From assembly GCA_035650735.1 (NCBI GenBank), contig DASRGZ010000201.1, forward strand, positions 1 through 34,001: 34,001 nt of DNA. The letters are read 5' to 3'. Source of the stretch: Chthonomonadaceae bacterium (GTDB taxonomy: Bacteria > Armatimonadota > Chthonomonadetes > Chthonomonadales > Chthonomonadaceae). A program made the position numbers and the translations under genes. Positions 5,466 through 31,842 of this stretch are shown here, piece by piece. The first letter of the stretch is position 1. Every line of letters starts with the position of its first letter. The notes beneath the pieces were generated by a model that was not told the DNA's origin, did not search any database, and saw nothing but the letters and a program-made list of their open reading frames with translations.

Positions 5466-5466
5466 T

Positions 5467-7856: not shown

Positions 7857-7989
7857 GGGAATGAATTCCCTCGCTGGGTGGCCTGCGGCCTAGTGTCCGC
7901 CTACGCGGACACGTACCGACTGAGAGCCTGGTAAGTCTCCCCAAAGGGGGAGACTGGGCCGCAGGCCACCCAGCGAAGGGCTTTAGCCC
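7857..7989. repeat. Inverted pair of family B elements (7857-7912 plus, 7934-7989 minus)
   Basis: Shared core TCGCTGGGTGGCCTGCGGCC in inverted orientation; flanking hairpins differ in sequence but both pair. Confidence 0.85.
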
Positions 7990-9217: not shown

Positions 9218-9237
9218 GCGCAGATTTTCTCCTATGG

Positions 9238-9527
9238 ACCTAACCCCCGGCTCCCACTGCTAGGGTCGGGGCTATCATGGTTCGCGCCACTGCCAGGGTC
9301 GGCAAGGTTACGGCCCTTGCCTCCGCCTTGCGACACCTAGCGACACGGCTCCGCCTTGCGACACCCCTCCGTCTAGCGATCCTAGCCGCTCGTTCCTCGC
9401 TAGGGAAGGGGGGGACCCGGCTTCTGCTCTCCCTTCTCCCTTGGGGGGAGAAGGGCCGGGGATGAGGGGAGAACAAGGCTTCTTCTCTACCCTCTCCTTG
9501 AGAAGGAGAGGGGTTGGGGGTGAGGTC
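9238..9527. repeat. Family A mosaic carrying nested family C units (9256-9380)
   Basis: Two left ends (ACTGCTAGGGTCGG 9256, ACTGCCAGGGTCGG 9289) followed by several right ends (CCTTGCGAC, CCTAGCGAC, CCTTGCGAC, TCTAGCGAT), all inside a CCTAACCCCCGG...AGGGAAGGGG element. Confidence 0.9.
9289..9334 (+). mobile_element. Family C 46-nt mini-element (complete copy)
   Basis: ACTGCCAGGGTCGGCAAGGTTACGGCCCTTGCCTCCGCCTTGCGAC; mobility inferred from nesting. Confidence 0.6.
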
Positions 9528-9541
9528 TTCTGGAATGAAGG

Positions 9542-10936
9542 CTACAGCACCCGCTTCTTGACCTTCGTGCCCTGCGGCGTGTCGGCAACTTCGTAGCCCA
9601 TGGCGATCAGTTGGTCGCGCAGGGCGTCGGAACGGGCGAAATCGCGCGCTTTGCGAACCGCATTGCGCTCTTCCACCAGCGCCTGCACCTCCGGCGGCAG
9701 GGCCTCCTCGCCCCGGCACGACCGCTTAGCTATGTCGAGGCCGAGGATGGAATCGAACTCCACCCACAGGCGATAGCTGCCGTGCATATTCAGCAGGCCG
9801 ACCGCCTGCGGCACGCTCAGATCGTCGTTGATCGCTTCCAGTACGCGCTGCCGCGCCGCCTCAAATGCCGAGTCATCCTCGCGCAGCGGATCGTTGTCCG
9901 GGCAGAGCGAATAGATTTTGCGCAGGCCGGACGTAGCGGCGTCCAGCGCCTCCAGGGTAAAGTTAAGCTCCGAGCGGTAGTGCGCCTGAAGGCAGAGATA
10001 GCGATAGGCCAGCGGGTCGTAGCCCCGGCGGATAAGATCCTCCAGGGTGCTGGGCGGTCTCTCTTCCTCGCGGAGCTTGATCAGTTCTGACTTGGAGACT
10101 TTCCCACCGCCCATCAGCAGGAACTCGCCGTGCAGCCAGTACCGCACAAACTGGTGGTGCGTGGCGCACTCGCTCTGGGCGATCTCGTTGGTATGGTGGA
10201 CCGGAATATGATCGACGCCGCCACAGTGGATGTCGAAGGTCTCGCCCAGGTACTTCATGGACATCGCAGAGCACTCGATATGCCAGCCCGGATAGCCCGG
10301 CCCCCAGGGACTCTCCCACTGCATGATGTGCGTCGGCTTGTTTAAGAACCAGAGCACGAAATCGGACGGGTTCTTCTTGGTTTCGTCGGCAACGACCTCT
10401 TCGCGCGCGCCCTGCTTCTGCTCGGCCAGGTTGAGGCGGGCCAGCTTGCCATAATCCGGGTCTTTGGAGGTATCGAAATAGACGCCCTCGCTCGTGACGT
10501 AGGTATAGCCGTTGGCCTCCAGCCGCTGGATCAATTCAATCATCTCGCGGATATGCTCAGTGGCGCGCGGCATAATTTCAGGACGCTCGATGTTGAGGCG
10601 TTCAAAGTCCTTGAGCGCCGCCGACTCATAGAAGCGGGCGATCTCCCAAGGCGACTTCCTCTCTCTCTCGGCGGCCACCTGCATCTTATCTTCTCCGGCG
10701 TCGGCGTCGGTGGTCATGTGGCCGACATCGGTGATGTTCTGGACGTGGAGCAACTCGTAACCGTTGTATTTGAGCGCGCGGCGCAGCACATCTTCAAAGA
10801 CGTAGGTGCGCAGGTTGCCGATATGGGGATAGTTATAGACCGTCAGGCCGCAGCAGTACATCCGCACGCGCGGCGGATCGAGCGGCACGAACTCTTCTTT
10901 ACGGCGGGTCATCGTATTGTATAGATACATAGTCAT
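9542..10936 (-). CDS. cysS: Cysteine--tRNA ligase
   Basis: CGLTVY..PHIGN, PGWHIECSAMS, DIHCGGVDH..HHTNEIAQ, KVSKS, C-terminal RKARDFARSDALRDQL. Confidence 0.97.
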   Translation of the reverse strand: MTMYLYNTMTRRKEEFVPLDPPRVRMYCCGLTVYNYPHIGNLRTYVFEDVLRRALKYNGYELLHVQNITDVGHMTTDADAGEDKMQVAAERERKSPWEIARFYESAALKDFERLNIERPEIMPRATEHIREMIELIQRLEANGYTYVTSEGVYFDTSKDPDYGKLARLNLAEQKQGAREEVVADETKKNPSDFVLWFLNKPTHIMQWESPWGPGYPGWHIECSAMSMKYLGETFDIHCGGVDHIPVHHTNEIAQSECATHHQFVRYWLHGEFLLMGGGKVSKSELIKLREEERPPSTLEDLIRRGYDPLAYRYLCLQAHYRSELNFTLEALDAATSGLRKIYSLCPDNDPLREDDSAFEAARQRVLEAINDDLSVPQAVGLLNMHGSYRLWVEFDSILGLDIAKRSCRGEEALPPEVQALVEERNAVRKARDFARSDALRDQLIAMGYEVADTPQGTKVKKRVL

Positions 10937-10972
10937 CGTTAAGACGTCTCCTGCATCGCATTCATGCGTTTC

Positions 10973-10981
10973 ATTATACCA
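10973..10981 (-). promoter_or_regulatory. Extended -10 promoter element (TGGTATAAT) for cysS
   Basis: TGnTATAAT on the minus strand, 36 bp upstream of the cysS start. Confidence 0.6.
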
Positions 10982-11125
10982 AAAATCCGCCTCATCGCGC
11001 CGTCGTCCTCAGTACCCGATGTAATCGCGGTTGGAGAGGGAAGTTCTCGAGAGGCGACCGCGCTTTTGTGCCGTGTCACCCTATCGGTTCCAATGCTCAT
11101 GTTTGCGCTCCCAAGGAGTGAGCCT

Positions 11126-11148
11126 TTGACAGAACCGCGCGGTATAAT
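11126..11148 (+). promoter_or_regulatory. Promoter elements upstream of pgl
   Basis: TATAAT 11143-11148; TTGACA 11126-11131, but the spacer is only 11 bp. Confidence 0.45.
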
Positions 11149-11199
11149 GAGGGCAGGGGAGACGGCGGGCCGTGTTGGCCTGCCTGGATAGGAGAGACA

Positions 11200-11970
11200 G
11201 TGGCGATGGAGACGAAGTTGCAGCGCGCCTGCGTGCTTTTTGAGGACGTCGGTTCTCTGAGCCTGGACGCCGCCTATCGCTTTACGGCGCTGGCGGCGCA
11301 GAGCGCGGGCGCAGGCCGACCGTTTGCGGTGGCGCTGGCGGGCGGCTCGACGCCGGCCACGCTCTATGGCCTGCTGGCCGCCGCGCCATTCCGTGAGGCT
11401 ATCGCCTGGGAGAACGTCCACATTTTCTTTGGCGACGAACGGTGCGTGCCACCGGACGCGCCGGAAAGCAACTACCGCATGGCATGGGAGACCCTGTTGG
11501 CCCATGTGCCTCTGCCGGAAGCCAACATCCACCGTATGCCCGCCGAATGGCCCGACCACGAAGCCGCCGCGCGCCAGTACGCGGCGGAGTTGCGCGGCTT
11601 CTTCCAACTGGGAGGGAGCCAATGGCCGCGCTTTGATCTGATCCTGCTCGGCATGGGGCCGGACGGACATACCGCTTCGCTCTTCCCGCACAAGCCCGCG
11701 CTTCAGGAGCGGCAACGTCTTGTCGCCGCCACCGAGCCAGGTCTCAAGCCCTTCGTCCCACGCCTTACCCTGACGTTCTCGGCGATCAACCACGCCGCGC
11801 ATATTCTCTTTCTGGTGGCCGGAGCGGACAAAGCGGAGACGCTGGCGCGCGTTCTGGAGGGCCAATCCGAGCCGGAGAGCCTTCCCGCGCAAGCCGTCGC
11901 GCCGGAGAACGGCACGCTCACCTGGCTGCTGAACAAGGACGCGGCCAGTCGGCTACGCGCCTTGCCCTAA
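11200..11970 (+). CDS. pgl: 6-phosphogluconolactonase
   Basis: ALAGGSTP, FFGDERCVPP..SNY, FDLILLGMGPDGHTASLFP, RLTLT; start GTG 11200 or ATG 11206. Confidence 0.96.
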   Translation: MAMETKLQRACVLFEDVGSLSLDAAYRFTALAAQSAGAGRPFAVALAGGSTPATLYGLLAAAPFREAIAWENVHIFFGDERCVPPDAPESNYRMAWETLLAHVPLPEANIHRMPAEWPDHEAAARQYAAELRGFFQLGGSQWPRFDLILLGMGPDGHTASLFPHKPALQERQRLVAATEPGLKPFVPRLTLTFSAINHAAHILFLVAGADKAETLARVLEGQSEPESLPAQAVAPENGTLTWLLNKDAASRLRALP

Positions 11971-12010
11971 TCACAAAACTCGACCAGAGGGTGAGGGTCT
12001 ATTTTTCGGC

Positions 12011-13024
12011 TCAGTAGTCGGCGTGCTGGGAGCCGAACTTCCAGTTGACGAGCGTGCCCACGAGGATGACGACGAAGAGGATCCAGGCCACCGCCGAGGC
12101 GTATCCGATCTGGAACTGCTCAAATGCTTTGGTATAGATATAGTAGGAGATGGTCTGCGTGGTGCCTGCCGGGCCGCCGGTCGTCATGACTCGGGCCTGC
12201 TCGAAGCCGCCTTGCAGGCCGCCGATGACGCTCATAATGACGATAAAGAAGGTCGTCGGGGCCAGTTGCGGCCAGATGATGTGGCGGAAGGTCGCCCACT
12301 TGCCGGCTCCATCCACCTGCCCGGCGTCATAGAGGTCTTGCGGGATATTGGAGAGACCGGCCAGGTAGAGCAGCATGTTGCCGCCGCCGATAGAGACCCA
12401 GATGCCCATCAGCAGGATGGCGTCGCGCGCCCCGATGCCCCACTGCCGGACATCGAACCCGACGTGCTCCACCTGGAGTCCCAGCACGTTATGCGTGGAG
12501 GCGAGCCACTGCGGGGCGTGGCCAGGCAGGTGCAGCGCCTGCAATGTGCCGTTGATGAGCGCGTTGAGCGGGCCGAACTCCGGGTTGTAGAGAGCTTTCC
12601 AGAGGATGTAGAGCGCCACGCCCGCCGTGAAGCTGGGCAGGTAGAAGAGGGTACGGTAGACGATCATGCCGCGCAGCTTCTGGTTGAGCAGCAAGGCCAG
12701 GGCGAGCGAACCCGCGATGCTGATAGGAATGCCGATCATCAGGTAGACCGTGTTGATGGCATACAGCCAGAACTCCTCGGTGTGGAAGAGTTCCGAGAAG
12801 TTGGCGAACCCTATCCAGCTAAACGGCACCGTGCGCTGCAGGCGCCAGTTGGAGAAGCTGACCACCAGCGAGAACAGCACCGGCCCGACCGTAAACACCA
12901 GAAAGCCGAGCAGGTTGGGCAGCAGAAACAGCATCGCCGCCCAGAAATCCACGCGCTTCCGGCTGGCAAGCTTCTCCTCATGCCCTCCGTTGAGGGCCAG
13001 CGCCTCACCGCCAGCGACACTCAT
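12011..13024 (-). CDS. Carbohydrate ABC transporter permease (MalF/UgpA type)
   Basis: FLLPNLLGF, WIGFANF, RTLFYLP, EAA-like loop LYDAGQVDGAGKWATFRHI, GYASAVAW. Confidence 0.93.
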   Translation of the reverse strand: MSVAGGEALALNGGHEEKLASRKRVDFWAAMLFLLPNLLGFLVFTVGPVLFSLVVSFSNWRLQRTVPFSWIGFANFSELFHTEEFWLYAINTVYLMIGIPISIAGSLALALLLNQKLRGMIVYRTLFYLPSFTAGVALYILWKALYNPEFGPLNALINGTLQALHLPGHAPQWLASTHNVLGLQVEHVGFDVRQWGIGARDAILLMGIWVSIGGGNMLLYLAGLSNIPQDLYDAGQVDGAGKWATFRHIIWPQLAPTTFFIVIMSVIGGLQGGFEQARVMTTGGPAGTTQTISYYIYTKAFEQFQIGYASAVAWILFVVILVGTLVNWKFGSQHADY

Positions 13025-13056
13025 GAGTTCACGCGATCCTTTCCGTTGCGTTTGCG

Positions 13057-13185
13057 CCTAACCCCCCGTCCCTTTTAGGGTTTCGGAGCGGGCCGATCTG
13101 TTTTGCGACGGGTTAGAAACCCTTCGCAATTCCATTCCGTCGCTCAAACCGATCCGTTCGCCCCTGAACCCTTGTAGGGAAGGGG
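13057..13185. repeat. Family A element interrupted by a 96-bp imperfect inverted-repeat (MITE-like) insert
   Basis: CCTAACCCCCCG start and AGGGAAGGGG end; arms 13077-13111 and 13137-13172 are imperfectly complementary; CCCTT(T/G)TAGGG occurs at both junctions. Confidence 0.7.
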
Positions 13186-13195
13186 AAAGTCAGGT

Positions 13196-14599
13196 CTACC
13201 TGCGCGTTAGCTGCTCATAGCGGCGGCGCAGCGTCGGGTCCTGAGCGATCATCTTCTGTATCTCGGCATTGATCTTTTGCGCGGCGGTGTGCAGGGCCTC
13301 CGCCGCCGACTTCTGGTCCGATTTGACCAGGTCCATCTGTACATCGAGAATCCGCTGCACGGCCTGCCCATCCACAAACGGGCTGACCTCCTCCGGCACG
13401 CCCGCCGCCATCACCCGATACCACACGTCGTTGTAGTCCTCCTCCGGGTACTTGGGATCATGGAAATACTCCGGCGTGTTGCAGTAGGACTTCATCGGCG
13501 CCAGCGCGTCGGCCTGTGCATTTATCAGGTCGTTGTAGGGCTTGCGGCTCATGTAGACAAGGAAATCGAGCGCCTCTTTGGCGCGCGGGCTGGTCGCGTT
13601 GATCAGCGTGGCGCGGCCATAGCCATGAAACAGCCGGTAGGGGCCGTGAGGGCACTCCACCGCGCCCAGGCGCAAGGTCGGCGGCAGCAGCTTGCCGTTT
13701 TGCATCGGGTGCGTCTGGTCGCGCAGCGTGCAGAGCCACCACCGCCCGCCGAGCGCCATTGCGCCCTTGCCCGCCTCAAACCACTTGATGGTGCCCTGTC
13801 CCCAGCCGCCCTGCCCGGAGAGCGAAGCTTCCTCGATGGGAGAGGGCATGACGCGGTACTTGTAGATCAGGTCGTGGGCGAACTGGATGCCCGCAATGGC
13901 CTCCGGGCTGTCTATAATGCAGCGCGTGCCGTCCCGGTTGTAGATATGCCCGCCCCATTGCAGCAGGCAGTTCATCCAGAGCGGCTGCCAGTCGGCCAGG
14001 AAGCCATACCGAATGACGTGGCCGGCGCTATCGCGCTTGGTCAGGCGCTGCGCGAGCGGGAGAAACTGCTCCCACGTCCAGGACTTGACGTGAGGCAGCG
14101 GAATGCCTTCCTGCTCGAAGATCGCCTTGTTGAGCCAGAGGGCGTCCACGCCCGCATTGGTCGGCCAGCCGTAGATGCGCCCGTCGTAGACGAAGCAGGG
14201 GCGTACCGCCTCCCACACGTCGTCTATGGAGATACCTCGCTGCTTGAGCGCCTGCGTCACGTCCAGCGCCACGCCGGAACGCACGTAGGCAGAGAGCTGC
14301 TTGCCGTCGTAACAGTCGAACAGGTCTGGCCCGACGCCGCCCAGCGATTGCACGATTACCTTCTCCATGTCCGCGTTGCTCGGATCGAGCTTGAGGCCGG
14401 TCGGCGGGTGGGTGGGGCCGCCGGGCGGATTGAGCAGGCCGGCGTGCTGTTCCTGCTCAAACAGGGCGATCTGCTCCTTGCGGCGCGGGTTGTCGTCGCT
14501 GACCCAGACGAGCTTGCCGTCGGGCGGCGGCTGGAGCCTCCAGGCCAGCACCGAAAGGAGGATCAAGGCGCCGAAAATAATGCCGAAGAGTTTCTTCAT
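13196..14599 (-). CDS. Carbohydrate ABC transporter substrate-binding protein
   Basis: N-terminal membrane anchor; [38 protein letters not shown] typical of family 1 SBPs; ATGA overlap with the upstream macro gene. Confidence 0.9.
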
Positions 14600-15123
14600 G
14601 GGGTTAGTTCACGCAGGGCGTTTTGATAGGCCTGATAGACGCGCTCCTCAAAGCAGACGAAGCGGACTTTCTCCAGCGCCGGGTTGTTTGCCAGGGCCTC
14701 AAGCGTCTCCCGCAGGGCGATGCGCGTGGCGCGCTCGACCGGGAAGCCGTAGGCGCCCGTGCTGATGGCAGGAAAGGCGAGGGTGCGTAGGCCGTGCTGC
14801 TTTGCCCTGGCAAAGCAGTTGCGATAGCAGGAGGCCAAAAGCTCGTCCTCCCCATGCTGGCCGCCCCGCCACACCGGGCCGACCGTGTGGATGACCCACC
14901 GGGCCGGGAGATTATATCCGCCGGTGATTTTGGCCTGTCCCGTCGGGCAGCCATGCAGCTTGCGGCACTCTTCGAGCAGCCCTGGCCCCGCCGCACGATG
15001 GATGGCCCCATCCACGCCCCCGCCGCCAAGCAGGGACGTGTTGGCCGCGTTAACGATGGCATCCACCGCCTGCCTGGTTATGTCGCCCTGAACGATCTCA
15101 ATTTTGCCGGTTAAATTCCCCAT
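14596..15123 (-). CDS. Macro-domain O-acetyl-ADP-ribose deacetylase (YmdB-like)
   Basis: [63 protein letters not shown]. Confidence 0.96.
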
Positions 15124-15179
15124 CGCGCTCCTCCTAACCTTCCCGGCGCCCTGCTAAGGCCAGTCCGCTTTGTTATGGT

Positions 15180-15368
15180 CGAATGAATTCGCAGCAACCA
15201 AGGCACGAAGTCGCCCTACGGCGACTAAACCCTCCCCTCTGCCGCAGCATGGATCGCAAGGCGGAGGGGCGAACCATTGCAGCCCCGACCCTGGCAGTAG
15301 GGGGCAGGGGGTGAGGGCAGAACCCGCGCAGGCGGGTTTAGTGCCTTGGCTGCTGCGGCTTGAGCCGC
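15180..15368. repeat. Three-tier mosaic: inverted family B pair enclosing a family A element that contains one family C unit
   Basis: B copies 15180-15226 (+) and 15321-15368 (-) share GCAGCA(A/G)CCAAGGCAC; A on the minus strand about 15229-15317; C at 15253-15298. Confidence 0.85.
15253..15298 (-). mobile_element. Family C 46-nt mini-element (complete copy)
   Basis: ACTGCCAGGGTCGGGGCTGCAATGGTTCGCCCCTCCGCCTTGCGAT. Confidence 0.6.
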
Positions 15369-15459
15369 CCGGAAAGAAAACAGGATCCTACCTGCACGCA
15401 AGGAGCCGACCGGGTTTGTACCCGCGATTGGCTATCTCTCACCCTTTCGATTACGGGGC

Positions 15460-15488
15460 GTGACAGAAGCTTTGTTTGCCAGTATAAT
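15460..15488 (+). promoter_or_regulatory. Sigma70-type promoter
   Basis: GTGACA-N17-TATAAT upstream of the nucleotidyltransferase gene. Confidence 0.7.
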
Positions 15489-15587
15489 TGCTCTAGAGAA
15501 CCTCTCAAACTGGCTCCCGACGCGCTCTCCTACATCTAGATGATATCCGTTCGGCACATCCGCATCTTCCTGGGAGACAATGACCCG

Positions 15588-16964
15588 ATGCTGAGGCCGC
15601 ACTCGCCCCGACGATATAACCCTCCCGCTGCGCCGGAGCCGCCTCCCGCCGCAGAACCGGACGCAGGCAACAGCGGCTTGCTGCGGCTGGAGGCCGTGCA
15701 CGGCCTGCCCGCGCACGCCGCCTTGCTGGTCGCCTGCGCCACCGTTGAGGTCAATGAAGCTTCCCATAGGGCCGTAGATGCCGCTCTCTCCCTGCCCGGC
15801 CTGGATTGGCCCGCCGCCGTCCGGGCCAGCATCCGGCACGGTGTTGCGCCGCTGGTCGCCCTCCATTTGCAGAGCTTTGCCGCGGACCCGCGTATCCCGC
15901 CGGAGGTTGCTGCCTGCTTTGACCGCATCTATCGGGCCAATGCGGCGCGCAACCAGGTTATTTTCCGCGAAACGGCGCGCCTGGCGCGGGCGCTGGCGGA
16001 GGCGGGCATTCCTTTTCTCGTTCTCAAGGGGGTAGCGCTGGCGCTTACCGTCTATCCGGACCCCACGCTGCGCCATTTTGCCGACCTGGATATTCTGGTC
16101 GCCCCGCAAGATTTCCAGGCGGCCTGCACGGTTGCGGAGGCCTGTGGCTTCAAGCAGGAGGTGAAAGAAGTCATCTCCAGGTCCCATCATATCCCTTATC
16201 TCTATGTTTGTGCGGAGGATATTTTCAGCGGGACCGTTGCGCCCGAGTTTGATTCGTCGCTAACGCCAGAACTCCTCTCCAGGCATGGCCATCAATTTCG
16301 AGTTGAAATTCACCATGGATTGTTCTGCCTGCTCGGCGGCATCGTGCGGAATGTGGATCTGGCTCCGTTCTGGCAGGAGGCACAGAAGACCGCGCTTCCC
16401 GACGGAACCTCCGTGCGGCTGCCCTCTCCCGAGCCGATGCTGGTTCATCTGGCCGCGCACGCGGCGAGCCATCTCTACGGACGATTGCTCTACCCGATAG
16501 ACGCTGCCCAGGTCATCCATTGCTATAGCACACAGATAGACTGGGATTGGCTTATAGAGTTGGCCTCCAGATGTGGAGAAAGCGCGTCTGTTTATCGGCT
16601 GATGACGCTCGCGCAGCAGTTTGGCGCGGAGATTCCAGCACAGACGCTACACCGGCTTCGGGAGGCGCCGGGCGGCAAGGCGGCAAGACACCCCTTGCTA
16701 TTGACCCAGATCTTCAAAGTAGATCCCAAAGATCATAGCGTTCAGATGTGGCAGCAGTGGCGGATGCTTGGAAACACACGGGATCGTCTGACAGCACTCC
16801 GCTATGTTCTCTTTCCGCCGGCACCTATTCTGCGCGCCGTCTACGGCATCGAGTCTCCCTATCTTCTCCCCCCCCTCTACCTCTATCGCCCGCTGCATGT
16901 GGCGTGGCGGCTAGTGCGTATCCTTCTGCGCCGTGCAAAGTCGCATCTCCCGGAGCAACATTAA
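15588..16964 (+). CDS. Nucleotidyltransferase family protein (uncharacterised NTP_transf_5-like)
   Basis: LDW..HGVAPL, GIPFLVLKGVALA..YPDPTLRHFADLDILV (KG...DxD), VEIHH, LVHLAAH, IDWDWL. ATG 15588 after GGGAG; alternative start 15540. Confidence 0.85.
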   Translation: MLRPHSPRRYNPPAAPEPPPAAEPDAGNSGLLRLEAVHGLPAHAALLVACATVEVNEASHRAVDAALSLPGLDWPAAVRASIRHGVAPLVALHLQSFAADPRIPPEVAACFDRIYRANAARNQVIFRETARLARALAEAGIPFLVLKGVALALTVYPDPTLRHFADLDILVAPQDFQAACTVAEACGFKQEVKEVISRSHHIPYLYVCAEDIFSGTVAPEFDSSLTPELLSRHGHQFRVEIHHGLFCLLGGIVRNVDLAPFWQEAQKTALPDGTSVRLPSPEPMLVHLAAHAASHLYGRLLYPIDAAQVIHCYSTQIDWDWLIELASRCGESASVYRLMTLAQQFGAEIPAQTLHRLREAPGGKAARHPLLLTQIFKVDPKDHSVQMWQQWRMLGNTRDRLTALRYVLFPPAPILRAVYGIESPYLLPPLYLYRPLHVAWRLVRILLRRAKSHLPEQH

Positions 16965-16981
16965 ACCGGAGTAACATTAAA
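16950..16981. repeat. 16-bp tandem duplication spanning the nucleotidyltransferase stop codon
   Basis: CCGGAGCAACATTAAA followed directly by CCGGAGTAACATTAAA (15/16 identical). Confidence 0.85.
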
Positions 16982-17095
16982 TAGGAACGTCACTATTGTC
17001 GGAGTCAGTCCTGTGTTGCCGATAATAAAAAAGGGATCGGAGCGTTTCTGGCGAACTAAGAGGCTGCATATCGCCGTATTTGAGGATGGAACTTC

Positions 17096-19516: not shown

Positions 19517-19596
19517 TTCTTTACGGCAATGCGAGGCTCCTGCCGCCTGCCTCTTCTCGCCTGGATGTCGAGCTGCACCCCCGGCGCCCCGGTTCG

Positions 19597-20532: not shown

Positions 20533-20665
20533 ATATGCTCCTCATCGAAAGAATTTGCGTCTTTTTCGGTTTGCTTGCAGGCGACATTTCCAGATCGGCG
20601 CGGGCTTGTCCTGCATGACAACTAAATGTTCAGGGGTCGTTCCATTTTCGCCCGCAACCGAATAT

Positions 20666-21002
20666 GGAAGAACCTTGCCCGGATCACCGGGTCTTTCCGT
20701 TTTCCCTGTACTCGCCGCCGGGCACGGAAAGTACCCGGCTATGGGGCCTAACGGCCAGGCGTCCTGGCGGACGCGCCTGTCCCGCAGGAGTTTCCGTCCG
20801 GGAGGACGGTTGGCGGCGCAGCCGCCCTCTAGCCGGGTATTTTCAATGCCCGGCTAGGACCGGGGTTTTCACCCCCCGGCTCCAGGGCCTGCGGCCAAGC
20901 GACTGCAAGGGACGCCGCTCAACGGTTCGCGGCTCGGCCTTGCGACTGGCGGACGCCAAAAACGCAAAAACACTGAGAACGGAACGACCCTGCCCGGATC
21001 AC
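20666..21002. repeat. Cluster of three family B elements (20718-20774 +, 20794-20853 -, 20860-20956 +) bracketed by a 22-bp direct repeat
   Basis: GGAAGAACCTTGCCCGGATCAC (20666-20687) and GGAACGACCCTGCCCGGATCAC (20981-21002); each B copy shows three successive hairpins. Confidence 0.75.
20902..20946 (+). mobile_element. Family C 45-nt mini-element inserted in a family B hairpin
   Basis: ACTGCAAGGGACGCCGCTCAACGGTTCGCGGCTCGGCCTTGCGAC interrupts GCG|..TGGCGGACGC; the intact form GCGTCCTGGCGGACGC is at 20759-20774. Confidence 0.6.
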
Positions 21003-21077
21003 ATACGAAGAGGATTCCGGGCGCTCTATGCCGAAAAAACACGTTGCAACCATCGCATTAGCCGCTTTCAATAGCTT

Positions 21078-22823: not shown

Positions 22824-22828
22824 TCGGA

Positions 22829-22911
22829 CAAGGCAATCGCAAACTGATCTCATCCCAGGGATGCTCTTCTGCCTGGATGAGAAGGCAAAAGCGTTTCCTG
22901 CGATTGCCCTG
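22829..22911. terminator. Long interrupted hairpin between convergent genes
   Basis: GGCAATCGCA (22832-22841)/TGCGATTGCC (22899-22908) enclose TCTCATCC(C)AGG/CCTGGATGAGA. Confidence 0.45.
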
Positions 22912-22924
22912 CCTGGGAACCGAT

Positions 22925-24337
22925 TCATGCGGACAGGCGATTCAGATGCCTTTGAAGATTGCCCAGCCCATCATAGGCCGCGTATTTATAGGAGTCGGCC
23001 AGGGTCGGATAGTTGTAGACGGCTTCGATGAAGGCGTCAATCGTGCCCCCGATAGCCATGACGTGTGCGCCGATGTGGATCAGTTCCGAGGCTAACTCGC
23101 CGATCATGTGCGCGCCCAACAGCTTCTTGTCCTCCGGCGAGAAGACCAGCTTGAGCATCCCGTTCAGGTCCCCGATGATCTGGCCGCGCGGGTTTCGCGC
23201 GTAATACGAGCGCCCGACGAGGTAGGGAATGTTCTGCTGGCGGCAAACATCCTCCGATTGCCCGACCATCGCGATCTCCGGAATCGCATACACCGTGAGA
23301 GGGAGGATCGGGGAGACGCGCTCCTTGTACTTGAGGTCGAAGGCGTGCACCATCGCCACGCGCGCCTGTTCCATAGAGGTAGATGCCAGCGCCGGAAAGC
23401 CGATCACGTCTCCGGCGGCGTAGATATTGGGCACGCTGGTCTGGTACTTCTCGTTGACCAGAATCAGCCCACGCTCTCCCAACCGCACGCCAATCTCTTC
23501 CAACCCCAATCCCTGCACAGCGCTCTGCCGCCCGGCGGCGATCAGGGCGATATCGGCCTCCAACCTTTCTCCGCTGCGCAGAGTTAACTCCACGCGCTCC
23601 GCGCCTGTCTTGACCTCCGCCGCCCGCTCGTTGAAAATAAAGCGCAGCCCCAGGCCCTCCAGGTGATCCTGCAATCGGACGGCGATCTCGCTATCTACAA
23701 AAGGCAAGACCCGGTCCCGGCTATCTACCAGGGTTACCTGAATATCCAGGGCTGTGAAGATGCTGGCATACTCGGTACCGATCACGCCCCCGCCCACAAC
23801 CACCATCGTTTTCGGGATGAACTGCATGTGGAGGATGGAGTCGGAGTCGTAGATGCGAAAATTATCCAAGGGTATTTCCGGGGGATGATAGGGAGATGAT
23901 CCGGTGGCGATGAGGATGATGTCGGTATGCAGATCGCACGTCGTGCCATCCGGCAGGCGCACCTGAACCGTGTGGGCGTCCTTCAGTGCCGCCTCGCCCT
24001 GGATAAGCTCGATTCCGTGCCGATCCAGATTGCGCTGGATGAGCGCCCATTCGTTCTCAATCACAATCTGCTTGCGATAGAGCAAGTCATGGACGGTCAG
24101 GCCCTCCCGGAGCGAGTAATCAATGCCGTAGAGGCCGCGCTGGCGCAGCCCGGAGAAGTAGAGCGCCGTCTCGCGCAGGGTCTTCGAGGGAACGGTGCCT
24201 GAGTTGATGCAGGCCCCTCCGAGGTAAGGGCAGCGTTCCACTAACGCTACCCTTTTGCCGAAATAGGCGGCCTGGGCCGCTCCCTTTTCCCCCGCCGGGC
24301 CTGATCCGATGACGATAAGATCGTGGTGCTCTTCCAT
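22925..24337 (-). CDS. sthA: Soluble (Si-specific) NAD(P)+ transhydrogenase
   Basis: MEEHHDLIVIGSGPAGEKGAAQAAYFGKRV; GGACINSGTVPSKTLRE (single Cys, CxxxxT); GFPALASTSMEQAR; NYPTL..YKYAAYDGL. Start moved to ATG 24337. Confidence 0.92.
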   Translation of the reverse strand: MEEHHDLIVIGSGPAGEKGAAQAAYFGKRVALVERCPYLGGACINSGTVPSKTLRETALYFSGLRQRGLYGIDYSLREGLTVHDLLYRKQIVIENEWALIQRNLDRHGIELIQGEAALKDAHTVQVRLPDGTTCDLHTDIILIATGSSPYHPPEIPLDNFRIYDSDSILHMQFIPKTMVVVGGGVIGTEYASIFTALDIQVTLVDSRDRVLPFVDSEIAVRLQDHLEGLGLRFIFNERAAEVKTGAERVELTLRSGERLEADIALIAAGRQSAVQGLGLEEIGVRLGERGLILVNEKYQTSVPNIYAAGDVIGFPALASTSMEQARVAMVHAFDLKYKERVSPILPLTVYAIPEIAMVGQSEDVCRQQNIPYLVGRSYYARNPRGQIIGDLNGMLKLVFSPEDKKLLGAHMIGELASELIHIGAHVMAIGGTIDAFIEAVYNYPTLADSYKYAAYDGLGNLQRHLNRLSA

Positions 24338-24453
24338 GACGTGACCTCGGTTCGTGCCAGGGTTCTTTGCTGCCGCTGCGAGATACTGCCTTCTTCGACA
24401 GCCAAAACTGAGTTCCTGCGTGATGGAAGAGGTATTTCTTGCGGGCATGGAGG

Positions 24454-27400
24454 CTAGCGCCATGCCTGCCATGCCTGCCATTGCGCGGTGAGGATGGCCG
24501 CCCACTTCCGCATCACCTCGCGGTGCGTCAGCAGGTAGAATCCAACCACGAACAGCCCCACGCCAATCAGCAACGCCGCCAGCGTTCCGATCTCCTCCGG
24601 CAGATGTCCCTCGATTGTGGAGGCCGCGAACGCCGCCGTAAACGCCAGCCCCGCGTACACGAACGCTCGGATACGCTGCCCAATGCCCCAGAGTACCGCC
24701 GCCAGGCACTCCACCAGCAGCAATACCGTATGCCAGGGGACGTCGCCATACCGATAGGCCAGGAACGCCGGCGTCAGAATCACCAGCAGGCCCGTCCACC
24801 AGAACGACTGCGCCTGCTCCGAGGTCTGCCGGTGTCCCTCCCGGTGCCCGATCAGGATCAGATACAGGCCGACCGGCAGCAGGTAGAGGTCGAGCGTCTG
24901 CACGTCCGGGCCGAAATGGTCGTAGAGGATCAGCCCCCAGGCCGCCAGCAGGTTCCAGATTCCGGCGTGCAGCCAGCCCTCGTGGTTCTCCAGCAGCCAT
25001 AGCCCGAAGCAGATCGCGCCCGCCCAGGCCAGCGTCAGGATCGACCAGCTTCCCTCGCCGGGCGTCCGCGCCGCCAGCACGCCGACGACCGCGCTGAAGA
25101 GGCCGAGCCATCCGCTGAGATTCAGGAGCGGCCCCGCCAGGTCGGAGCGCTGCCAGCGGCGGTGGACATGCCAGCCGACGAGGAACCAGAAGACCCCCGA
25201 TTGCGCAGCCAGGAACGCAAAGCGCGGCCAGGAGAGCGGCGCCAGGTCGGGATGCGGGTACAACAGCGGCGTGCGCGTCAGCAGATGGTGCAGGTAGGCG
25301 CCGGTCAGCGTGAGGGCGCCGAGGGCAACCGTCTCCGGCGTGCGCCGGGCAACGGCGAGGGCCGCATACGCCGCGCCGTAGGCGGCCAGCGTCAGGGTGA
25401 TCAGGCCGGGCATGGCGGCATGGGAAGGCGCCAGCAGGCCGTCTCCGTGTCCGGCGGACCAGAACAGCGCCAGCACCGACACCGCCAGGCCCGTCCGGCG
25501 CAGCGGCTCACCGAAGAGCGCGTCCTCCGCGCTGTCGAGCGCAAACCGCATTCCGGCGGCGTACAGAGCAATGAGCAGCGGCAGCAGCATGAGCGCGTGC
25601 CACTGCGCTGGCAGCGGCCAGGCCAGCTCCGCCGCGCGCAGGTAGCTGCCGATCAGCGTGAGCGCGCCGGCATAGGTGAACTCAGCCCGCCCGCTCCAGC
25701 GGGCCGTCTGTCCGTAGCACCAGGCCAGCGCCGTGCCCCCGACGACCCAGAGCGCATCGGCCAGCCCCGCATCGAGCGCGGACAGGCGCGGCGATCCCCG
25801 CCAGCCGAGGAACAGCGCATAGCCGCCCACGAGCGGCAGCCAGGAGAGTCGCGCGAACTCCGCCCGCTCCAGCCAGCGCGCGGCACCCAGATAGATCGCG
25901 GCTGCCGCCAGCGCGCAGAACGACCAGGCCGGGACGGCCAGCGGCGTAGATGGCGAGAGGATATATGCCTCCCAGAGAGCGCCTATTCCCCCCGCGATCT
26001 GCCCACAGACCACCGGCGGCACAGCCCACTCCGCCCAGGGCGAAGGAAGAGGCGCCTTGCCCTTCGCGGCGGCGGGCCGGGACGCAAACGCCAGCGCCGC
26101 CAGGAGGCACAGGGCCACGCCGTAGAGCAGCAGCGCCAGCGGGTAGGCGCCGGTCGGGGCGTGCGCCCAGGCCAGCCCACTCACCAGCGCCAGGCCCCAG
26201 GTCGCCAGCGCGCCATAGAGGTCATCCGGCTGGCGATCCCACCACGCAAAGAGGGCGTAGAAAGCGCCGCAAAGGGCCGCAAGCAGCGCGTTCTCGCCGA
26301 ACGCCTGCCCGTGCTGGCCCCGGGCACCCAGAGTCCACAGATCGACGGCGCGGCCCCAGATAACGAGCGTCGCCGCCACCACGCTGAGCAGAGCCACCTG
26401 TCGGTAAGCCGCCGCCAGTTCCGCAGCGCTGGAGGAGGCCGCCGCGCGCTTGCCGTTGAACGCAGCCAGCCCTAGCGCCGCCGCGCTCAGCGCCAGCAGA
26501 AGCATACCGAAGCCGTCCCAGGCGTACTCCGTGTGCGCCGATATCCAGAGGACGCCGCTTCCCGTCAGGAACCCGCCGGAAACGTAGACCATGCGGCCCT
26601 CGCCCAGGCTCTGCGCCCCGGCGGCATAGATCAGGCCAGCCAGCAGCGCCACCAGGGCTAGCTCCTCCTGATGCCCCGCGCCCTGTAGCATCGCGTTCAG
26701 CGCGGAGAAGGCCACAGCTGTCGTCGCCACCAGGTGCGCCCAAAGCAGCCAGGCTGACGCCCACGGATTGCCCTCCGCCGCAGGCTTGGCTTGCTCGGCG
26801 CCGCGCGCCCGCCAGGCCGCACCCAGGCACAGCGCGGCGTACAGCAGGTAGGCCCCACCAAACAGCAGCAAAGGCTGCGGGCGGAAATCGTTCGGGGGCG
26901 CACTCCAGCGCAGGGCTTGCAGGGCGGCATAGAGGGTCGTCAGCGCGCCCACCTGAAACAGATGCAGGTAGGGCACCTCGCGCCAGCGCAGCAGCAGCGC
27001 GCCCGCCATCGCCGTCGCCGCAAGGCTGGATGCCAGCAGTACCTGCCGGGTCGGCAGCGCGAAGAGCCAGTACTTGTTGATGGCGATCAGGTCCAAGGCG
27101 ACCAGCGCGGCGGCCACGCCGTGATAGACGAACGCGGCCCAGGGGTTTTCCCGGCGGGTCTTCTGCCCGAACAGCCAGAACAGAACGGCCAGCCCAAGCG
27201 GCACCACCGGGATCAGGCGCACCGCCAGGAGATCCATCCAGTCCCAGGCAAGCATGCTGCGCACCGCGACGAGCACCAGCACGGTCGCCAGGGCAAAGAG
27301 CGCCTTGAGGGCGTGCTCCTGGAAGAATTCGCCCAGGCCCGGGGAGAGCGGCGCGGCGGACGGTGGAGCGCTGCCTGCGCCGCTACCTCCGGCAGCGGCA

Positions 27401-27753
27401 GGGGCCGCGTGGAAGACAACGGCCTGCGGCGCGGCTCCGGCGCCCTCCGGTCGGGAAGCGGGCGCCGTCAACTCGGCGGCAAGCGCGGCTTGTCGGTCGG
27501 CATATTCGCGCTGAAGCTGCGCCGCCGCCGTTTCGGAGAGCAGGCTCCGCGATTGCCAGCCTGTCAACTGAGCCAGCAGATAGGCGATATGCCCTATCTC
27601 GGCCCGGAGGGCCGCTTGCGGGGCAGGCAGTAATTGCCCACAGTGGGTGCAATAGCGCGCCCAGTCCGCATTGGCATGGCCGCAAACCACGCACATTCGG
27701 ACGGGAGCAGAGGTATTCGCGGAAGAGACCGAAGGCTGCGAAGCATCTTGCAT
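24454..27753 (-). CDS. Very large polytopic membrane protein with N-terminal zinc ribbon (DUF2157/SCO7613-like)
   Basis: CVVC-x10-CTHC, then about 950 residues of repeated hydrophobic helices; C-terminal LDLYLLPVG...LWGIGQRIRA...LIGVGLFVVG; GAGGGG RBS. Confidence 0.8.
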   Translation of the reverse strand: MQDASQPSVSSANTSAPVRMCVVCGHANADWARYCTHCGQLLPAPQAALRAEIGHIAYLLAQLTGWQSRSLLSETAAAQLQREYADRQAALAAELTAPASRPEGAGAAPQAVVFHAAPAAAGGSGAGSAPPSAAPLSPGLGEFFQEHALKALFALATVLVLVAVRSMLAWDWMDLLAVRLIPVVPLGLAVLFWLFGQKTRRENPWAAFVYHGVAAALVALDLIAINKYWLFALPTRQVLLASSLAATAMAGALLLRWREVPYLHLFQVGALTTLYAALQALRWSAPPNDFRPQPLLLFGGAYLLYAALCLGAAWRARGAEQAKPAAEGNPWASAWLLWAHLVATTAVAFSALNAMLQGAGHQEELALVALLAGLIYAAGAQSLGEGRMVYVSGGFLTGSGVLWISAHTEYAWDGFGMLLLALSAAALGLAAFNGKRAAASSSAAELAAAYRQVALLSVVAATLVIWGRAVDLWTLGARGQHGQAFGENALLAALCGAFYALFAWWDRQPDDLYGALATWGLALVSGLAWAHAPTGAYPLALLLYGVALCLLAALAFASRPAAAKGKAPLPSPWAEWAVPPVVCGQIAGGIGALWEAYILSPSTPLAVPAWSFCALAAAAIYLGAARWLERAEFARLSWLPLVGGYALFLGWRGSPRLSALDAGLADALWVVGGTALAWCYGQTARWSGRAEFTYAGALTLIGSYLRAAELAWPLPAQWHALMLLPLLIALYAAGMRFALDSAEDALFGEPLRRTGLAVSVLALFWSAGHGDGLLAPSHAAMPGLITLTLAAYGAAYAALAVARRTPETVALGALTLTGAYLHHLLTRTPLLYPHPDLAPLSWPRFAFLAAQSGVFWFLVGWHVHRRWQRSDLAGPLLNLSGWLGLFSAVVGVLAARTPGEGSWSILTLAWAGAICFGLWLLENHEGWLHAGIWNLLAAWGLILYDHFGPDVQTLDLYLLPVGLYLILIGHREGHRQTSEQAQSFWWTGLLVILTPAFLAYRYGDVPWHTVLLLVECLAAVLWGIGQRIRAFVYAGLAFTAAFAASTIEGHLPEEIGTLAALLIGVGLFVVGFYLLTHREVMRKWAAILTAQWQAWQAWR

Positions 27754-27817
27754 GGCCGTTTCCCCTCTTTAAGACAACACGCGCACCCACGATGGTGCGT
27801 CCGCCAGACTTCTCTTT

Positions 27818-27942
27818 GCACCCCAGCCCTTCTTGACCTAACCCCCCGGCCCCTCCCTGCTTCGTTCGCTCCGCTCACAGGGAAGGGAGGGACCCGGCTT
27901 CTCTTCCCCCTTCTTGCAGGGAGAAGGGCCGGGGGTGAGGTC
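27818..27942. repeat. Family A REP-like mosaic
   Basis: CACCCCAGCCCTTCTTGACCTAACCCCCCGGCCCCTCCCT..AGGGAAGGGAGGGACCCGGCTTCTC..GGGAGAAGGGCCGGGGGTGAGGTC; parallels 5272-5400. Confidence 0.85.
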
Positions 27943-28060
27943 TGCTGGGTTGAGGGCTATATTCACCCCCATTATAACGAGAAGCCAATCCGCCCGCATG
28001 GGCCGAAAGTCTCAATTTTAGGGAGAAAGAAGTCCCAAAAACACGGACAGGGAATGCGCT

Positions 28061-29392
28061 TCAAGCGAGCGGCGGCGTCTGTTCCAGCAGGTGCGGGGGT
28101 GGCGGCTGAGTGAGCTTGGGGAACAGGTACATGAGGACAATCTGGATGGAGGCGGCCACCGGCACGGCCAGCAGCATTCCCAGCACGCCAAACAGCGTCG
28201 CGCCCGCCATCAGCGCGAAGATGCTGACTACCGGATGCAGCCCGACCGAGGCGCCCACCACGCGCGGGTAGACGATCTGATCAAAAAGGTTCTGCGCAAC
28301 GATGGCGCAGAGCACGACGGCGAGCGTGTAGCCGATGGAGTTGGCCGGGATATGGACAAAGAGCAGGGCGGTGTGGCTGTCCATCGAGTAGGCGACCGCG
28401 CCGGAGACGAGGGCCGTGATCAACTGCCCGACGTAGGGCACGGCGTAGAACGCGCCGGCCATAATGCCCAGGAACAGCGCATATTTCAGGCCGAGCAGTT
28501 GGAAAATCACAAAGGCGGTCAGGGCGTAGAGCAGGCAGATTTTGGCTAACCCGCGTATATAGGCGCTGAACACGTCTACGATTTCGCGGCTCATCCGATC
28601 CACCTGCGTCTGGTACGCCTCCGGGAAGAGGGAGATGATGCGGGCGCGCAGCACCGGATAGTCCCGCATGAAGAAGAAGGCCGTCACCGGGATGATGATG
28701 AGCCAGAGGATTTTGGAGGCGGCGCCGGTCAGAAAGCCGGTGACGCCGCCCAGCAGGGTGTTGATGGTGTCCTTCAGCGGGCCGGAGCGCTGCTGGAAGA
28801 GGTCGCTGATCCGCTCCTGCTTGATGCCCAGCAGCCGCAGCATGCCGGCGTTGTGGTGCAGGAAGGCATCGGCGGTGCTCTGGATATTGGTAAAGTAGAC
28901 GTTGAAGTTCTGGCTCAGCTCCTCGATCTGGTCGCGGGCCCTGGGAACGACAAACAGGAAGAAGAGCGCCACCAGGCACACGCCGAACACATAGAGGGTC
29001 AGGATCGCCCGGACACGCGAACGTCCATGCTGCTCCAGCATGCGGATCGTCGGGTCCAGCAGAGCCGCCAGAAAGAAGGCGATGAGAAAGGGCGGCAGGA
29101 TGGATTGAACCTGCCACAGAAACAGGCAGGCCGCCGTGGCAGCAAGGCCCAGAGCGAGGAGGCGCTGCCAGTCCCGCCGGGAAAGCCCCAGCCACCGGTC
29201 GCCGCGCATCAGCGCAACCTCCGTGGCGCGAACGGTAACCTCGTCCGGCGTGGCGCGTTCGGCCTGGTCATCCGCTGCCGGGGAGACTGTAAGAAGCGAG
29301 ACGGCAGGAGCCACCGGGTCGGGCGGCGTTTCCGTCGCAATCGCCGCCTCTACCGGCCCCTGCCGTTTCGGTTGAATTACGCTTTCAGACAT
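28061..29392 (-). CDS. AI-2E family transporter
   Basis: LPPFLIAFFLAALLDP, FFFMRD, YIRG, VPYVG, YPRVVGASVGLHPV, GMLLAVPVAA. Confidence 0.93.
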   Translation of the reverse strand: MSESVIQPKRQGPVEAAIATETPPDPVAPAVSLLTVSPAADDQAERATPDEVTVRATEVALMRGDRWLGLSRRDWQRLLALGLAATAACLFLWQVQSILPPFLIAFFLAALLDPTIRMLEQHGRSRVRAILTLYVFGVCLVALFFLFVVPRARDQIEELSQNFNVYFTNIQSTADAFLHHNAGMLRLLGIKQERISDLFQQRSGPLKDTINTLLGGVTGFLTGAASKILWLIIIPVTAFFFMRDYPVLRARIISLFPEAYQTQVDRMSREIVDVFSAYIRGLAKICLLYALTAFVIFQLLGLKYALFLGIMAGAFYAVPYVGQLITALVSGAVAYSMDSHTALLFVHIPANSIGYTLAVVLCAIVAQNLFDQIVYPRVVGASVGLHPVVSIFALMAGATLFGVLGMLLAVPVAASIQIVLMYLFPKLTQPPPPHLLEQTPPLA

Positions 29393-29395
29393 CCG

Positions 29396-29674
29396 TTAGC
29401 TTGTTGCCTCTTCGCCCTCGGTGGGAACCTCACCAAGCTTCTGCGCCATTGTCGCGCGCGTGCGGTCAACGGCGCTGGAGACTTTCTGGCTTACCTGCCG
29501 GCCCAGTTCCGTAATCTTATCGCTCAGGTCGCTGACGGACTTGCTCAGGTCGTCGCGGGTCTCCTGGCCCGACTTGGGCGCCAGGAGCAGACCGGCCACG
29601 GCCCCCACCAGCACGCCAATTCCAATGCCTGCCAGCACACTTACCAACACATTGCGATCCTCATCGTTTGCCAT
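29396..29674 (-). CDS. YtxH domain-containing protein
   Basis: ATG 29674 after AGGAGG; GVLVGAVAGLLLAPKSGQETRDDL. Confidence 0.92.
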   Translation of the reverse strand: MANDEDRNVLVSVLAGIGIGVLVGAVAGLLLAPKSGQETRDDLSKSVSDLSDKITELGRQVSQKVSSAVDRTRATMAQKLGEVPTEGEEATS

Positions 29675-29694
29675 CCGAACGTTCCTCCTGAAAC

Positions 29695-30147
29695 TTAGGA
29701 TAGGTTCTCTCGCTGTGTTTCTCGCGCCCGCAGGAAAGGACGCTCTGCAAGCTGAAACGGTTCCGGCAGGAGATCGGCAACGCGCCAGACGCCGGCGCCC
29801 TCCACTAGGACCGTCGCCTCCGGCGCCATCAACTCCGCCATCACCTGCCGACAGGCCCCGCAGGGCATCCGGCTTCCGGGCGGATCGTCCGGCCCGGAAC
29901 GCACGCAGGCCAGGGCCAGCCGCTTCATCTCCTTTGCCCCGGCGGCAATCGCCGCAAACAGGGCCACACGCTCCGCGCAGATCGCCAGGCCGTAACTGGC
30001 GTTTTCGATATTGCACCCGGCGAAGATACCGGCCTCGGTCTCCACCGCCGCGCCGACGGGAAAGTTGGAGTAGGGGCAGTAGGCTCTCTGCGCTGCTTCC
30101 CGTGCGCGCTCTAGTAAGGCGCGCTCCTCCGCCGTAAACTCACGCAT
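29695..30147 (-). CDS. cdd: Cytidine deaminase (homotetrameric type)
   Basis: AYCPYSNFPVGAA, GCNIENASYGLAICAER, PCGACRQ. Confidence 0.95.
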   Translation of the reverse strand: MREFTAEERALLERAREAAQRAYCPYSNFPVGAAVETEAGIFAGCNIENASYGLAICAERVALFAAIAAGAKEMKRLALACVRSGPDDPPGSRMPCGACRQVMAELMAPEATVLVEGAGVWRVADLLPEPFQLAERPFLRARETQRENLS

Positions 30148-30270
30148 GGTTTCTTGCCCACTCCCCGCCCCCCTCCTTCTCAAGGAGAGGGGAGACCTCG
30201 CTGCTAGGTTATCGTCCGGCAGGCTAAACCCTGCCGCTGCGGGGCCCTGCTAGGGTCGGGCCTGCAATGG

Positions 30271-30316
30271 ACTGCAAGGGTCGGCAGGGTTACGGCCCCT
30301 GCCTCCGCCCTGCGAC
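30271..30316 (+). mobile_element. Family C 46-nt mini-element nested inside another C unit
   Basis: ACTGCAAGGGTCGGCAGGGTTACGGCCCCTGCCTCCGCCCTGCGAC. Confidence 0.6.
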
Positions 30317-30428
30317 AGCGCTCCGCCTAGCGAGGCCCGCTGCCCACCTACGTGGGCAGGGGCAGGGAGGAGAAGCCGGGTCACCCCCTTCCCTTGTAGG
30401 GTCGCAAGGTGTCGCTAGGCGGAGGGCT

Positions 30429-30474
30429 GTCGCAAGGTGGAGGCCCGAACCATTGTAGGGCCGACCCTTGCAGT
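30429..30474 (-). mobile_element. Family C 46-nt mini-element nested inside another C unit
   Basis: ACTGCAAGGGTCGGCCCTACAATGGTTCGGGCCTCCACCTTGCGAC. Confidence 0.6.
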
Positions 30475-30525
30475 GGTGCGAGCGTGCGCAGCACCGACCC
30501 TTGCAGTGGGGGCCGGGGGGTTAGG

Positions 30526-31782: not shown

Positions 31783-31842
31783 CCCCACTCCCAGCCCCTA
31801 CTGCTAGGGTTGGCCCTGAAGCGGCAGGGTTTAGCCTGCCGG
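31783..31842. repeat. Truncated A/C/B composite
   Basis: A-type CCCCACTCCCAGCCCCT, C left end ACTGCTAGGGTTGG (31800-31813), then the reverse complement of B sequence 30216-30246. Confidence 0.75.

Follow-up and report, generated by a model that had tools for sequence, protein, structure and literature searches.

A 44–45-nucleotide hairpin that usually stands for two bases of palindromic repeats in a Chthonomonadaceae genome, and is probably an inserting element

How short palindromic repeats spread through bacterial genomes is still poorly understood (PMC8266576). Among the described systems to which the locus reported here comes closest are the repetitive extragenic palindromes (REP), their composites (BIME and REPIN) with the associated RAYT enzymes, and the TIR-TIRYT pairs; of these enzymes, TnpA-REP cleaves and rejoins single-stranded DNA close to bulged hairpins (PMC8266576). 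We analysed a 34,001-nucleotide stretch (the window) of a Chthonomonadaceae genome of 6.52 Mb in 224 contigs (the source genome, G000). A hairpin unit of 44–45 nucleotides, called family C, lies there inside other palindromic repeats and inside copies of itself. The unit has a constant anatomy, usually replaces two target bases, sits in one orientation, occupies hosts that can be identified, and nests in itself. That it inserts as an element in the first place we consider probable; it likely ranks among the smallest mobile elements, and the best reading of it is as a non-autonomous hyperparasite of hairpin repeats.

Each unit consists of a left arm of 12 nucleotides, an inner hairpin of 20–21 nucleotides and a right arm of 12 nucleotides. 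It folds into a 6-bp outer stem, then a 3 × 4 internal loop and an inner stem of 5–8 bp, with the terminal three bases unpaired. The five complete copies that the first-pass annotation had listed in the window (9289–9334, 20902–20946 and 30271–30316 on the forward strand, 15253–15298 and 30429–30474 on the reverse strand) are all present, the fifth with a single change in its right arm. All window units are intergenic, between ordinary genes, as judged from the open reading frame list and Pfam. The same annotation had described a short hairpin of 45–46 nucleotides; the short hairpin stands, but the 46th base equals the target's own base in most contexts and probably derives from the target. 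Like REP, BIME and REPIN-RAYT systems and TIR-TIRYT pairs (PMC6006769, PMC8266576, PMC3733652, PMC3116915), the unit is extragenic, non-coding and lineage-restricted, is present in hundreds of copies, forms a long bulged hairpin and builds mosaic composites. Unlike REP and REPIN-RAYT, it lacks a GTAG/GTGG or CGTC tetranucleotide 5′ of the hairpin foot and is mostly single rather than in inverted doublets (251 of 293 clusters are single units, and 25 are inverted pairs). It was also not found beside a tnpA-REP/Y1 gene in the 260–300 nucleotides around 14 such genes, a distance that does not cover for all of them the 1-kb radius used in the published work, and it enters other repeats and itself, replacing two bases.

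The insertion rule was read from unit-free paralogues, not from the orthologous filled and empty sites that the first-pass annotation had proposed to look for. Both flanks of 327 units were examined for such paralogues; 127 units had none and 36 only one, and the 164 with at least two were taken as resolved, using the shortest fitting gap and tolerating a single mismatch among the two bases that open the right flank. The unit stands for exactly two bases in 139 of these 164 cases, and no target duplication is present at resolved sites. Across 22 two-base flank contexts the lost pair is TC, CT, TT, CC or GC, and the next two bases beside the junction are often altered (CG to CA in 82/83, CC to TC in 10/21). 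A reading in which three bases are replaced (33/51) was refined to two lost and a third retained. Orientation within a host is nearly invariant (80:0, 54:2 and 28:0 in three hosts), and when the unit enters itself it does so at one of two sites, in the loop or where the inner stem ends. Just 5′ of the hairpin foot stands N-ACT on one strand and a variable, target-dependent tetramer on the other. Units show no bias towards the transcribed strand (87 versus 102, with crude gene calls), which fits DNA rather than a cis-acting RNA; the replication-strand split was 15 versus 25, from a small sample and by a crude method.

IS200/IS605 elements have non-autonomous derivatives as a class. The unit is like their ends in being strand-specific and structure-dependent and in leaving no target duplication (PMC6006769, PMC8266576), but it is one hairpin rather than two ends, and target bases are lost (139/164). 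It also has no constant target tetranucleotide at its left end, where the flanking tetramers vary (CCCC 49, ATGG 49, GGCC 35, ACGG 28, GCTG 23, and others), as the right flanks do. REP-targeting IS110 elements and MITEPpu9 resemble the unit in occupying fixed positions in extragenic palindromes, and a non-autonomous form exists there too. IS110, however, keeps its core dinucleotide at both ends and uses one target consensus (PMC12288879), whereas the unit has no repeated core, loses two bases, uses many targets and is 45 nucleotides long. IS110 (PF02371) is absent from G000 and from its relative G001, the two genomes searched for it. A classic DDE-type miniature inverted-repeat transposable element would differ from the unit in its paired ends and target-site duplication.

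R2Bm shares with the unit a 2-bp target-site deletion and a fixed orientation, and differs in being eukaryotic and kilobases long, in encoding a reverse transcriptase and a nuclease, and in having a single ribosomal DNA target (PMC6895275). Insertion in the R2 style, with a unit transcript reverse-transcribed at a cut site, would give both the 2-bp deletion that is the signature of R2Bm and the fixed polarity, and the unit folds as RNA at about −17 to −24 kcal/mol on either strand. We nevertheless judge this route very improbable. There is neither an A-tail nor a transcription-strand bias; the reverse transcriptase domain RVT_1 has no match in G000 or G001, and the single reverse transcriptase locus of a second relative, G010, is without a unit, all in incomplete assemblies.

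Many of the hosts could be identified in those two relatives, G001 (same genus) and G010 (another genus), where empty forms of the G000 host repeats, arranged as inverted repeats, flank DUF559 genes and Y1 genes on both sides. By a strict flank test, 126 of 425 composites match the empty cassette terminal repeats of G001 or G010, 75 of them DUF559-type and 51 Y1-type. Since the repeats around the cassette genes are empty, the empty state of the host repeats is probably ancestral. Both states are found in 15 of 62 host-A sub-variants, which favours repeated insertion, although recombination is possible; one site is occupied by different inner subtypes in different species, and further host repeats are in use in G001 and G010. 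Host repeat B fits the BoxC/TM consensus of PMC4666352 on the opposite strand, with 94 empty and 21 filled matches in G000 and none for the reversed control. The BoxC/PIT/TM triplex-motif repeats of that paper are thus hosts and not the unit, which interrupts their middle block. The first-pass annotation had supposed that the element targets hairpins including its own. Self-nesting in hairpins agrees with this, but the targets are not random hairpins, since the hosts are often cassette terminal repeats; the cassette identity of many hosts and the two-base replacement rule were absent from that annotation.

Seven loci of G001 and G010 (L227, L228, L229, L231, L232, L233 and L235) are single-gene DUF559 cassettes between inverted BoxC-type repeats, the one in L231 lying inside a 662-codon open frame. 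Host-A loops carry variable small hairpin modules of their own, which may be further inserted modules (window 5279–5470, 9380–9530 and 27821–27960; L227, L232 and L235); the module in L227 contains a short motif of the unit's loop in other species. Two small genes in G000 (C18:3536–3986 and C161:11162–11897), which we take to resemble GxxExxY proteins, are bracketed by inverted repeats, and one unit in L121 (1700–2000) lies beside repeats that presumably resemble those of the GxxExxY family.

A DUF559 protein, which has the Vsr fold, or another structure-specific nuclease might nick the hairpin target and leave host repair to paste or copy the unit and trim two bases. Most of the assigned composites (75 of 126) lie in DUF559-cassette repeats, several uninterrupted DUF559 cassettes exist in G001 and G010, and the changes beside the junction (CG to CA, CC to TC) resemble repair or templated hairpin correction. 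We rate the proposal as unlikely all the same, because we know of no joining activity in the DUF559 family, the assigned sites include 51 of Y1 type, none of nine DUF559 genes checked has the unit at its sides, and no free-standing DUF559 gene is present in the G000 assembly. The two-base loss itself would suit such a nuclease, as a staggered cut of the right geometry yields a 2-bp target deletion in R2Bm (PMC6895275).

The window holds both single units and nested ones. Nesting had been reported at three loci and is found at 9256–9379, 30247–30333 and 30402–30507, and the right ends described as piling up correspond to surplus right-arm remnants at 9334–9379 and 30402–30429. At the first locus, on the forward strand, the left half of host repeat A (pyrimidine-rich, of the DUF559-cassette terminal-repeat type) occupies 9237–9255. 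It is followed by an outer copy with left arm and complete inner hairpin, broken at the stem end (9256–9288), a complete 45-nucleotide unit inside that copy (9289–9333), three right-arm remnants (9334–9379) and the right half of host repeat A (9380–9413). Right arms outnumber left arms here, and the missing left parts were probably lost through recombination. A single complete unit on the reverse strand (15254–15298) lies in the middle block of host repeat B, of BoxC/triplex-motif type, with host halves at about 15234–15253 and 15299–15318. On the forward strand, a single complete 44-nucleotide unit (20902–20945) replaces TC in host repeat E, of the Y1-cassette terminal-repeat type, and an empty host-E site with TC present lies 140 bases upstream (20762–20763).

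At 30247–30333 on the forward strand an outer copy in a loop of host repeat D (Y1-cassette type) carries a complete unit in its own loop (30271–30315, forward); its 44-nucleotide core stands for three bases and so breaks the two-base rule. The composite at 30402–30507, on the reverse strand in host repeat A, comprises an outer left arm and hairpin (30475–30507), a complete unit at the stem end of that outer copy (30430–30474, reverse) and right-arm remnants (30402–30429), and stands for two bases in paralogous empty copies. Aligned contigs, most likely paralogues, have two letters between the positions equivalent to 30401 and 30508, and three between those equivalent to 30246 and 30334. Empty sites on the forward strand of the window are also found in host A (5315–5316, TT present), in host G, of Y1-cassette type (7896–7897, TC present), and at a second site of host D (30343–30344, CC present) that is filled elsewhere in G000. 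At 31800–31842 (forward) a truncated left arm is joined straight to a host-D repeat, a deletion chimera. A shared stretch of about 60 nucleotides with a TTGACA hexamer follows the unit inside the host-D repeat and recurs in composites at contig ends of G000 (C4, C12, C62, C65, C97, C98, C103, C106, C169, C175 and C208); it is possibly another captured insert.

The genome-wide scan called for by the first-pass annotation yielded hundreds more copies. G000 contains 240–336 complete innermost units, the range being set by the search pattern; there were 266 pattern matches against none for the reversed pattern, and 821 left arms against 17 in the reversed-sequence control. Outside crudely called genes lie 324 of 336 units. 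Composites number 442 and span 33.8 kb, and 222 of them have two to four left arms, four being the deepest self-nesting. The unit might instead be a passive module that arose in a few old insertion or template-switch accidents, was then amplified only by its host repeats and was reshuffled as copies recombined with one another. In favour of this, the same composites are met again and again, the host type on the left differs from that on the right in 61 of 281 classified composites (partly through ambiguity among three BoxC-like hosts), chimeric inner stems are present, and no strain polymorphism was seen among units in metagenome DNA of the same organism. A passive module nevertheless seems to us quite unlikely, given the single replacement length and single orientation across many unrelated target contexts, the recurrence of nesting at two fixed self-sites and the further hosts used in G001 and G010.

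Among relatives, the scan found ten copies in G001 and four in G010. No other of the 67 genomes of the class contained the unit, a possibly mis-binned copy in G019 aside, and the right-arm pattern was at control level in 400 other genomes of the phylum. That G019 copy (L005, G019:C128:6543–8158) was rejected as a case of horizontal spread: its composite is nearly identical to that of G000. An rpoB segment lies next to it and has no match in G000, so that L005 is possibly a contig of the source organism mis-binned into G019. At least 133 metagenome loci carry the unit, at least 121 from the same organism, at least three from apparently unassembled parts of it and at least nine from other organisms, with best hits 75–83% identical or none. 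This distribution is a lower bound, and the scan of the genome collection gave at least one locus. Viral contigs contained no full unit and seven core matches resembling chance, and plasmids and phages gave no matches above chance. The annotation had recognised no described family, and this held: Rfam gave no match at the gathering threshold, only sub-threshold microRNA-type hits, and the literature searched, which did not extend to ISfinder or to the supplementary repeat catalogues of PMC3733652 and PMC6006769, where related repeats could be listed, held no description of the unit or of a two-base-replacing bacterial mini-element. We conclude that the unit is real and undescribed in that literature, behaves as a non-autonomous element much like the REP class, and is a member of no family tested.

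An inner stem that varies in sequence and still pairs, as the first-pass annotation had it, was confirmed over 92 distinct inner sequences: Watson-Crick pairs fill 317 of 368 cells, where 2000 shuffles gave 201 ± 8. In an 18-copy alignment across species the inner helix is paired throughout, with changes on both sides at four of five pairs, and its covariation score was reached by none of 500 shuffles, slid controls being low (relatedness was not removed). In other species the conserved loop is enclosed by A/T-rich stems of quite another sequence, and a longer subtype in G001 keeps the unit ends. The covariation also claimed for the outer stem is weak, because this stem is nearly invariant and pairing at the one position that varies is seen in no more than 121 of 323 units, where independence would predict about 80. 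The proposal of a very small non-autonomous element selected on structure is thus upheld in that the unit is small, non-coding, structure-conserving and sited in hairpins. Its selection part is only partly upheld: some of the inner-stem covariation may stem from templated repair of imperfect palindromes rather than from selection.

A subset of units carries a spacer-like tag. At 15 loci in G000 a 37-nucleotide core is exactly duplicated around one 36-nucleotide insert, the repeat-spacer-repeat geometry of CRISPR (clustered short palindromic repeats at regular spacing). The tagged unit has since reached several hosts, and 12 of 13 parsed loci are cut, or nearly so, by a contig end on one or both sides. 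Eight distinct spacer scars occur within the unit family. G000 carries cas1 together with an array of 80 units whose repeat is 30 nucleotides long, and contains 131 ectopic repeat-insert-repeat candidates with a duplication peak at 30 bp and a second group at 35–39 bp. Scars of the second group often begin with a GTTGCAA-like sequence (for example C10:6485, C218:35876, C165:7988 and C92:11650). The G000 assembly has no array or second cas1 to match them, but a relative (G392, L209) has a 37-nucleotide repeat beginning with this motif, which the unit ends resemble. Because 35–39-bp scars with similar starts lie at unrelated sites and a relative has the 37-nucleotide repeat, off-target action of Cas1-Cas2 is the simplest account of the tag; a search for the source of the 36-nucleotide insert found none. 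At C182:26041–26200 (forward) in G000 two or more spacer-like inserts follow one another in a nested family-C locus, as if a small neo-array were growing within the element.

The tag raises the question of whether the unit itself began as a Thermus-class CRISPR repeat that Cas1-Cas2 still treats as such, an origin compatible with the other explanations. Compared by eye, the 46-base form agrees at positions 3–10 and over its final seven bases with repeat type 1 of Thermus thermophilus HB27 (PMC12102369, Table 1), and one of the eight scars duplicates the 37-nucleotide inner core exactly. The match is post hoc, though, each end is in part the complement of the other, and the final base probably comes from the target. 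No CRISPR array with the unit core showed up: the sole long array in G000 has another, 30-nucleotide repeat, counts in 401 phylum genomes were at control level, viral contigs contained no such array, and the CRISPR repeats in Rfam gave no match. Array candidates in G011 were put down to chance. As off-target integration alone accounts for the tag, we regard such an origin as improbable.

Of the mechanisms considered we favour, tentatively and without strong conviction, a non-autonomous mobile hairpin inserted on single-stranded DNA in trans by a cut-and-rejoin enzyme, in all likelihood a Y1/HUH protein of the type bounded by the terminal repeats that the hairpin invades. The fixed strand, absence of duplication, shape-dependent targets and lack of transcription bias suggest a chemistry that acts in trans on single-stranded DNA. 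Y1/HUH proteins come first among the candidates, since they cut and join near bulged hairpins (PMC8266576) and their cassette ends are among the targets. The candidate protein would cut and rejoin single-stranded DNA near a folded target, so that the unit would replace two bases at a fixed spot, in one orientation, in a host hairpin or in its own copy. Independent insertions into host repeats would have occurred repeatedly, and the unit may have spread further by riding on those repeats.

The enzyme was sought in several places. Genes between neighbouring units were, as judged by eye, housekeeping or uncharacterised; orphan arms enclose no gene; none of 52 stretches flanked by inverted repeats resembled a mobiliser bounded by the unit; and the GIY-YIG, Cas1, TnpB and reverse transcriptase loci carry no unit, the only GIY-YIG hit in G000 being in a 618-amino-acid frame. 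Metagenome DNA of the same organism absent from G000 contained no obvious nuclease, again judged by eye. No unit lies within 260–300 nucleotides of 14 Y1 and nine DUF559 genes in G001 and G010, or in the flanks seen of three Y1 genes in G000. Two of these three are RAYT/TIRYT-like and repeat-flanked (C166:80092–80433, reverse; C166:12536–12873, forward), and the third is a truncated tnpA ahead of tnpB. An HUH/RAYT or other recombinase gene flanked by the unit, which the annotation had suggested looking for, was therefore not found. Its link to HUH/Y1 transposases was not shown either: the unit lacks both a GTAG-type guide and a constant target tetranucleotide, is beside none of 23 DUF559 or Y1 genes and deletes two bases. 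However, arms lie at 66 of 448 contig ends, and because assemblies break at these repeats a unit-bracketed enzyme gene could be missing from the assembly.

Several observations weigh against insertion by a Y1/HUH enzyme. No gene with the unit at its ends was found in G000 or in the relatives' loci examined, and both RAYT-like genes of G000 are damaged, one with the second His of HUH changed to Pro and one frameshifted. The unit carries neither a guide of GTAG type nor a constant dinucleotide for cleavage or tetranucleotide as target, and the parts of PMC6006769 and PMC8266576 drawn on here do not describe a two-base loss for HUH strand transfer, whether by IS200/IS605 or by TnpA-REP. DUF559-type assigned sites outnumber Y1-type ones, and 299 of 425 composites have no cassette-repeat assignment. 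The two-base rule has 25 exceptions among the 164 resolved cases: four bases are replaced in 14, at a loop site whose first base is different too, and the remaining 11 have still other lengths. No orthologous filled and empty pair was found: all empty sites are paralogous, and among 153 units in metagenome DNA of the same organism 123 were identical and 30 unanchored. Our preference stays tentative because ordinary REP or IS200/IS605 chemistry is hard to reconcile with the two-base loss and the lack of a guide motif.

The rules that the unit offers are sharp and testable: its ends are defined, it replaces two bases and keeps one orientation, its substrates are known both empty and filled, and one lineage bears a spacer tag. 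It also ties Y1 cassettes and uncharacterised DUF559 cassettes, whose ends it invades, into one test, the proteins being present in close relatives. It is conceivable, though doubtful, that it represents minimal mobile DNA of a new class, in which a hairpin of 45 bases takes the place of two bases of a folded target through a structure-guided 'replace' chemistry that known transposases do not share, a parasite of the ends of two unrelated cassette families and of itself that may descend from a CRISPR repeat. If so, the enzyme behind it would serve as a compact tool for inserting DNA into hairpins with a defined scar, and the activity that has long been missing for the BoxC/triplex repeats could be this one.

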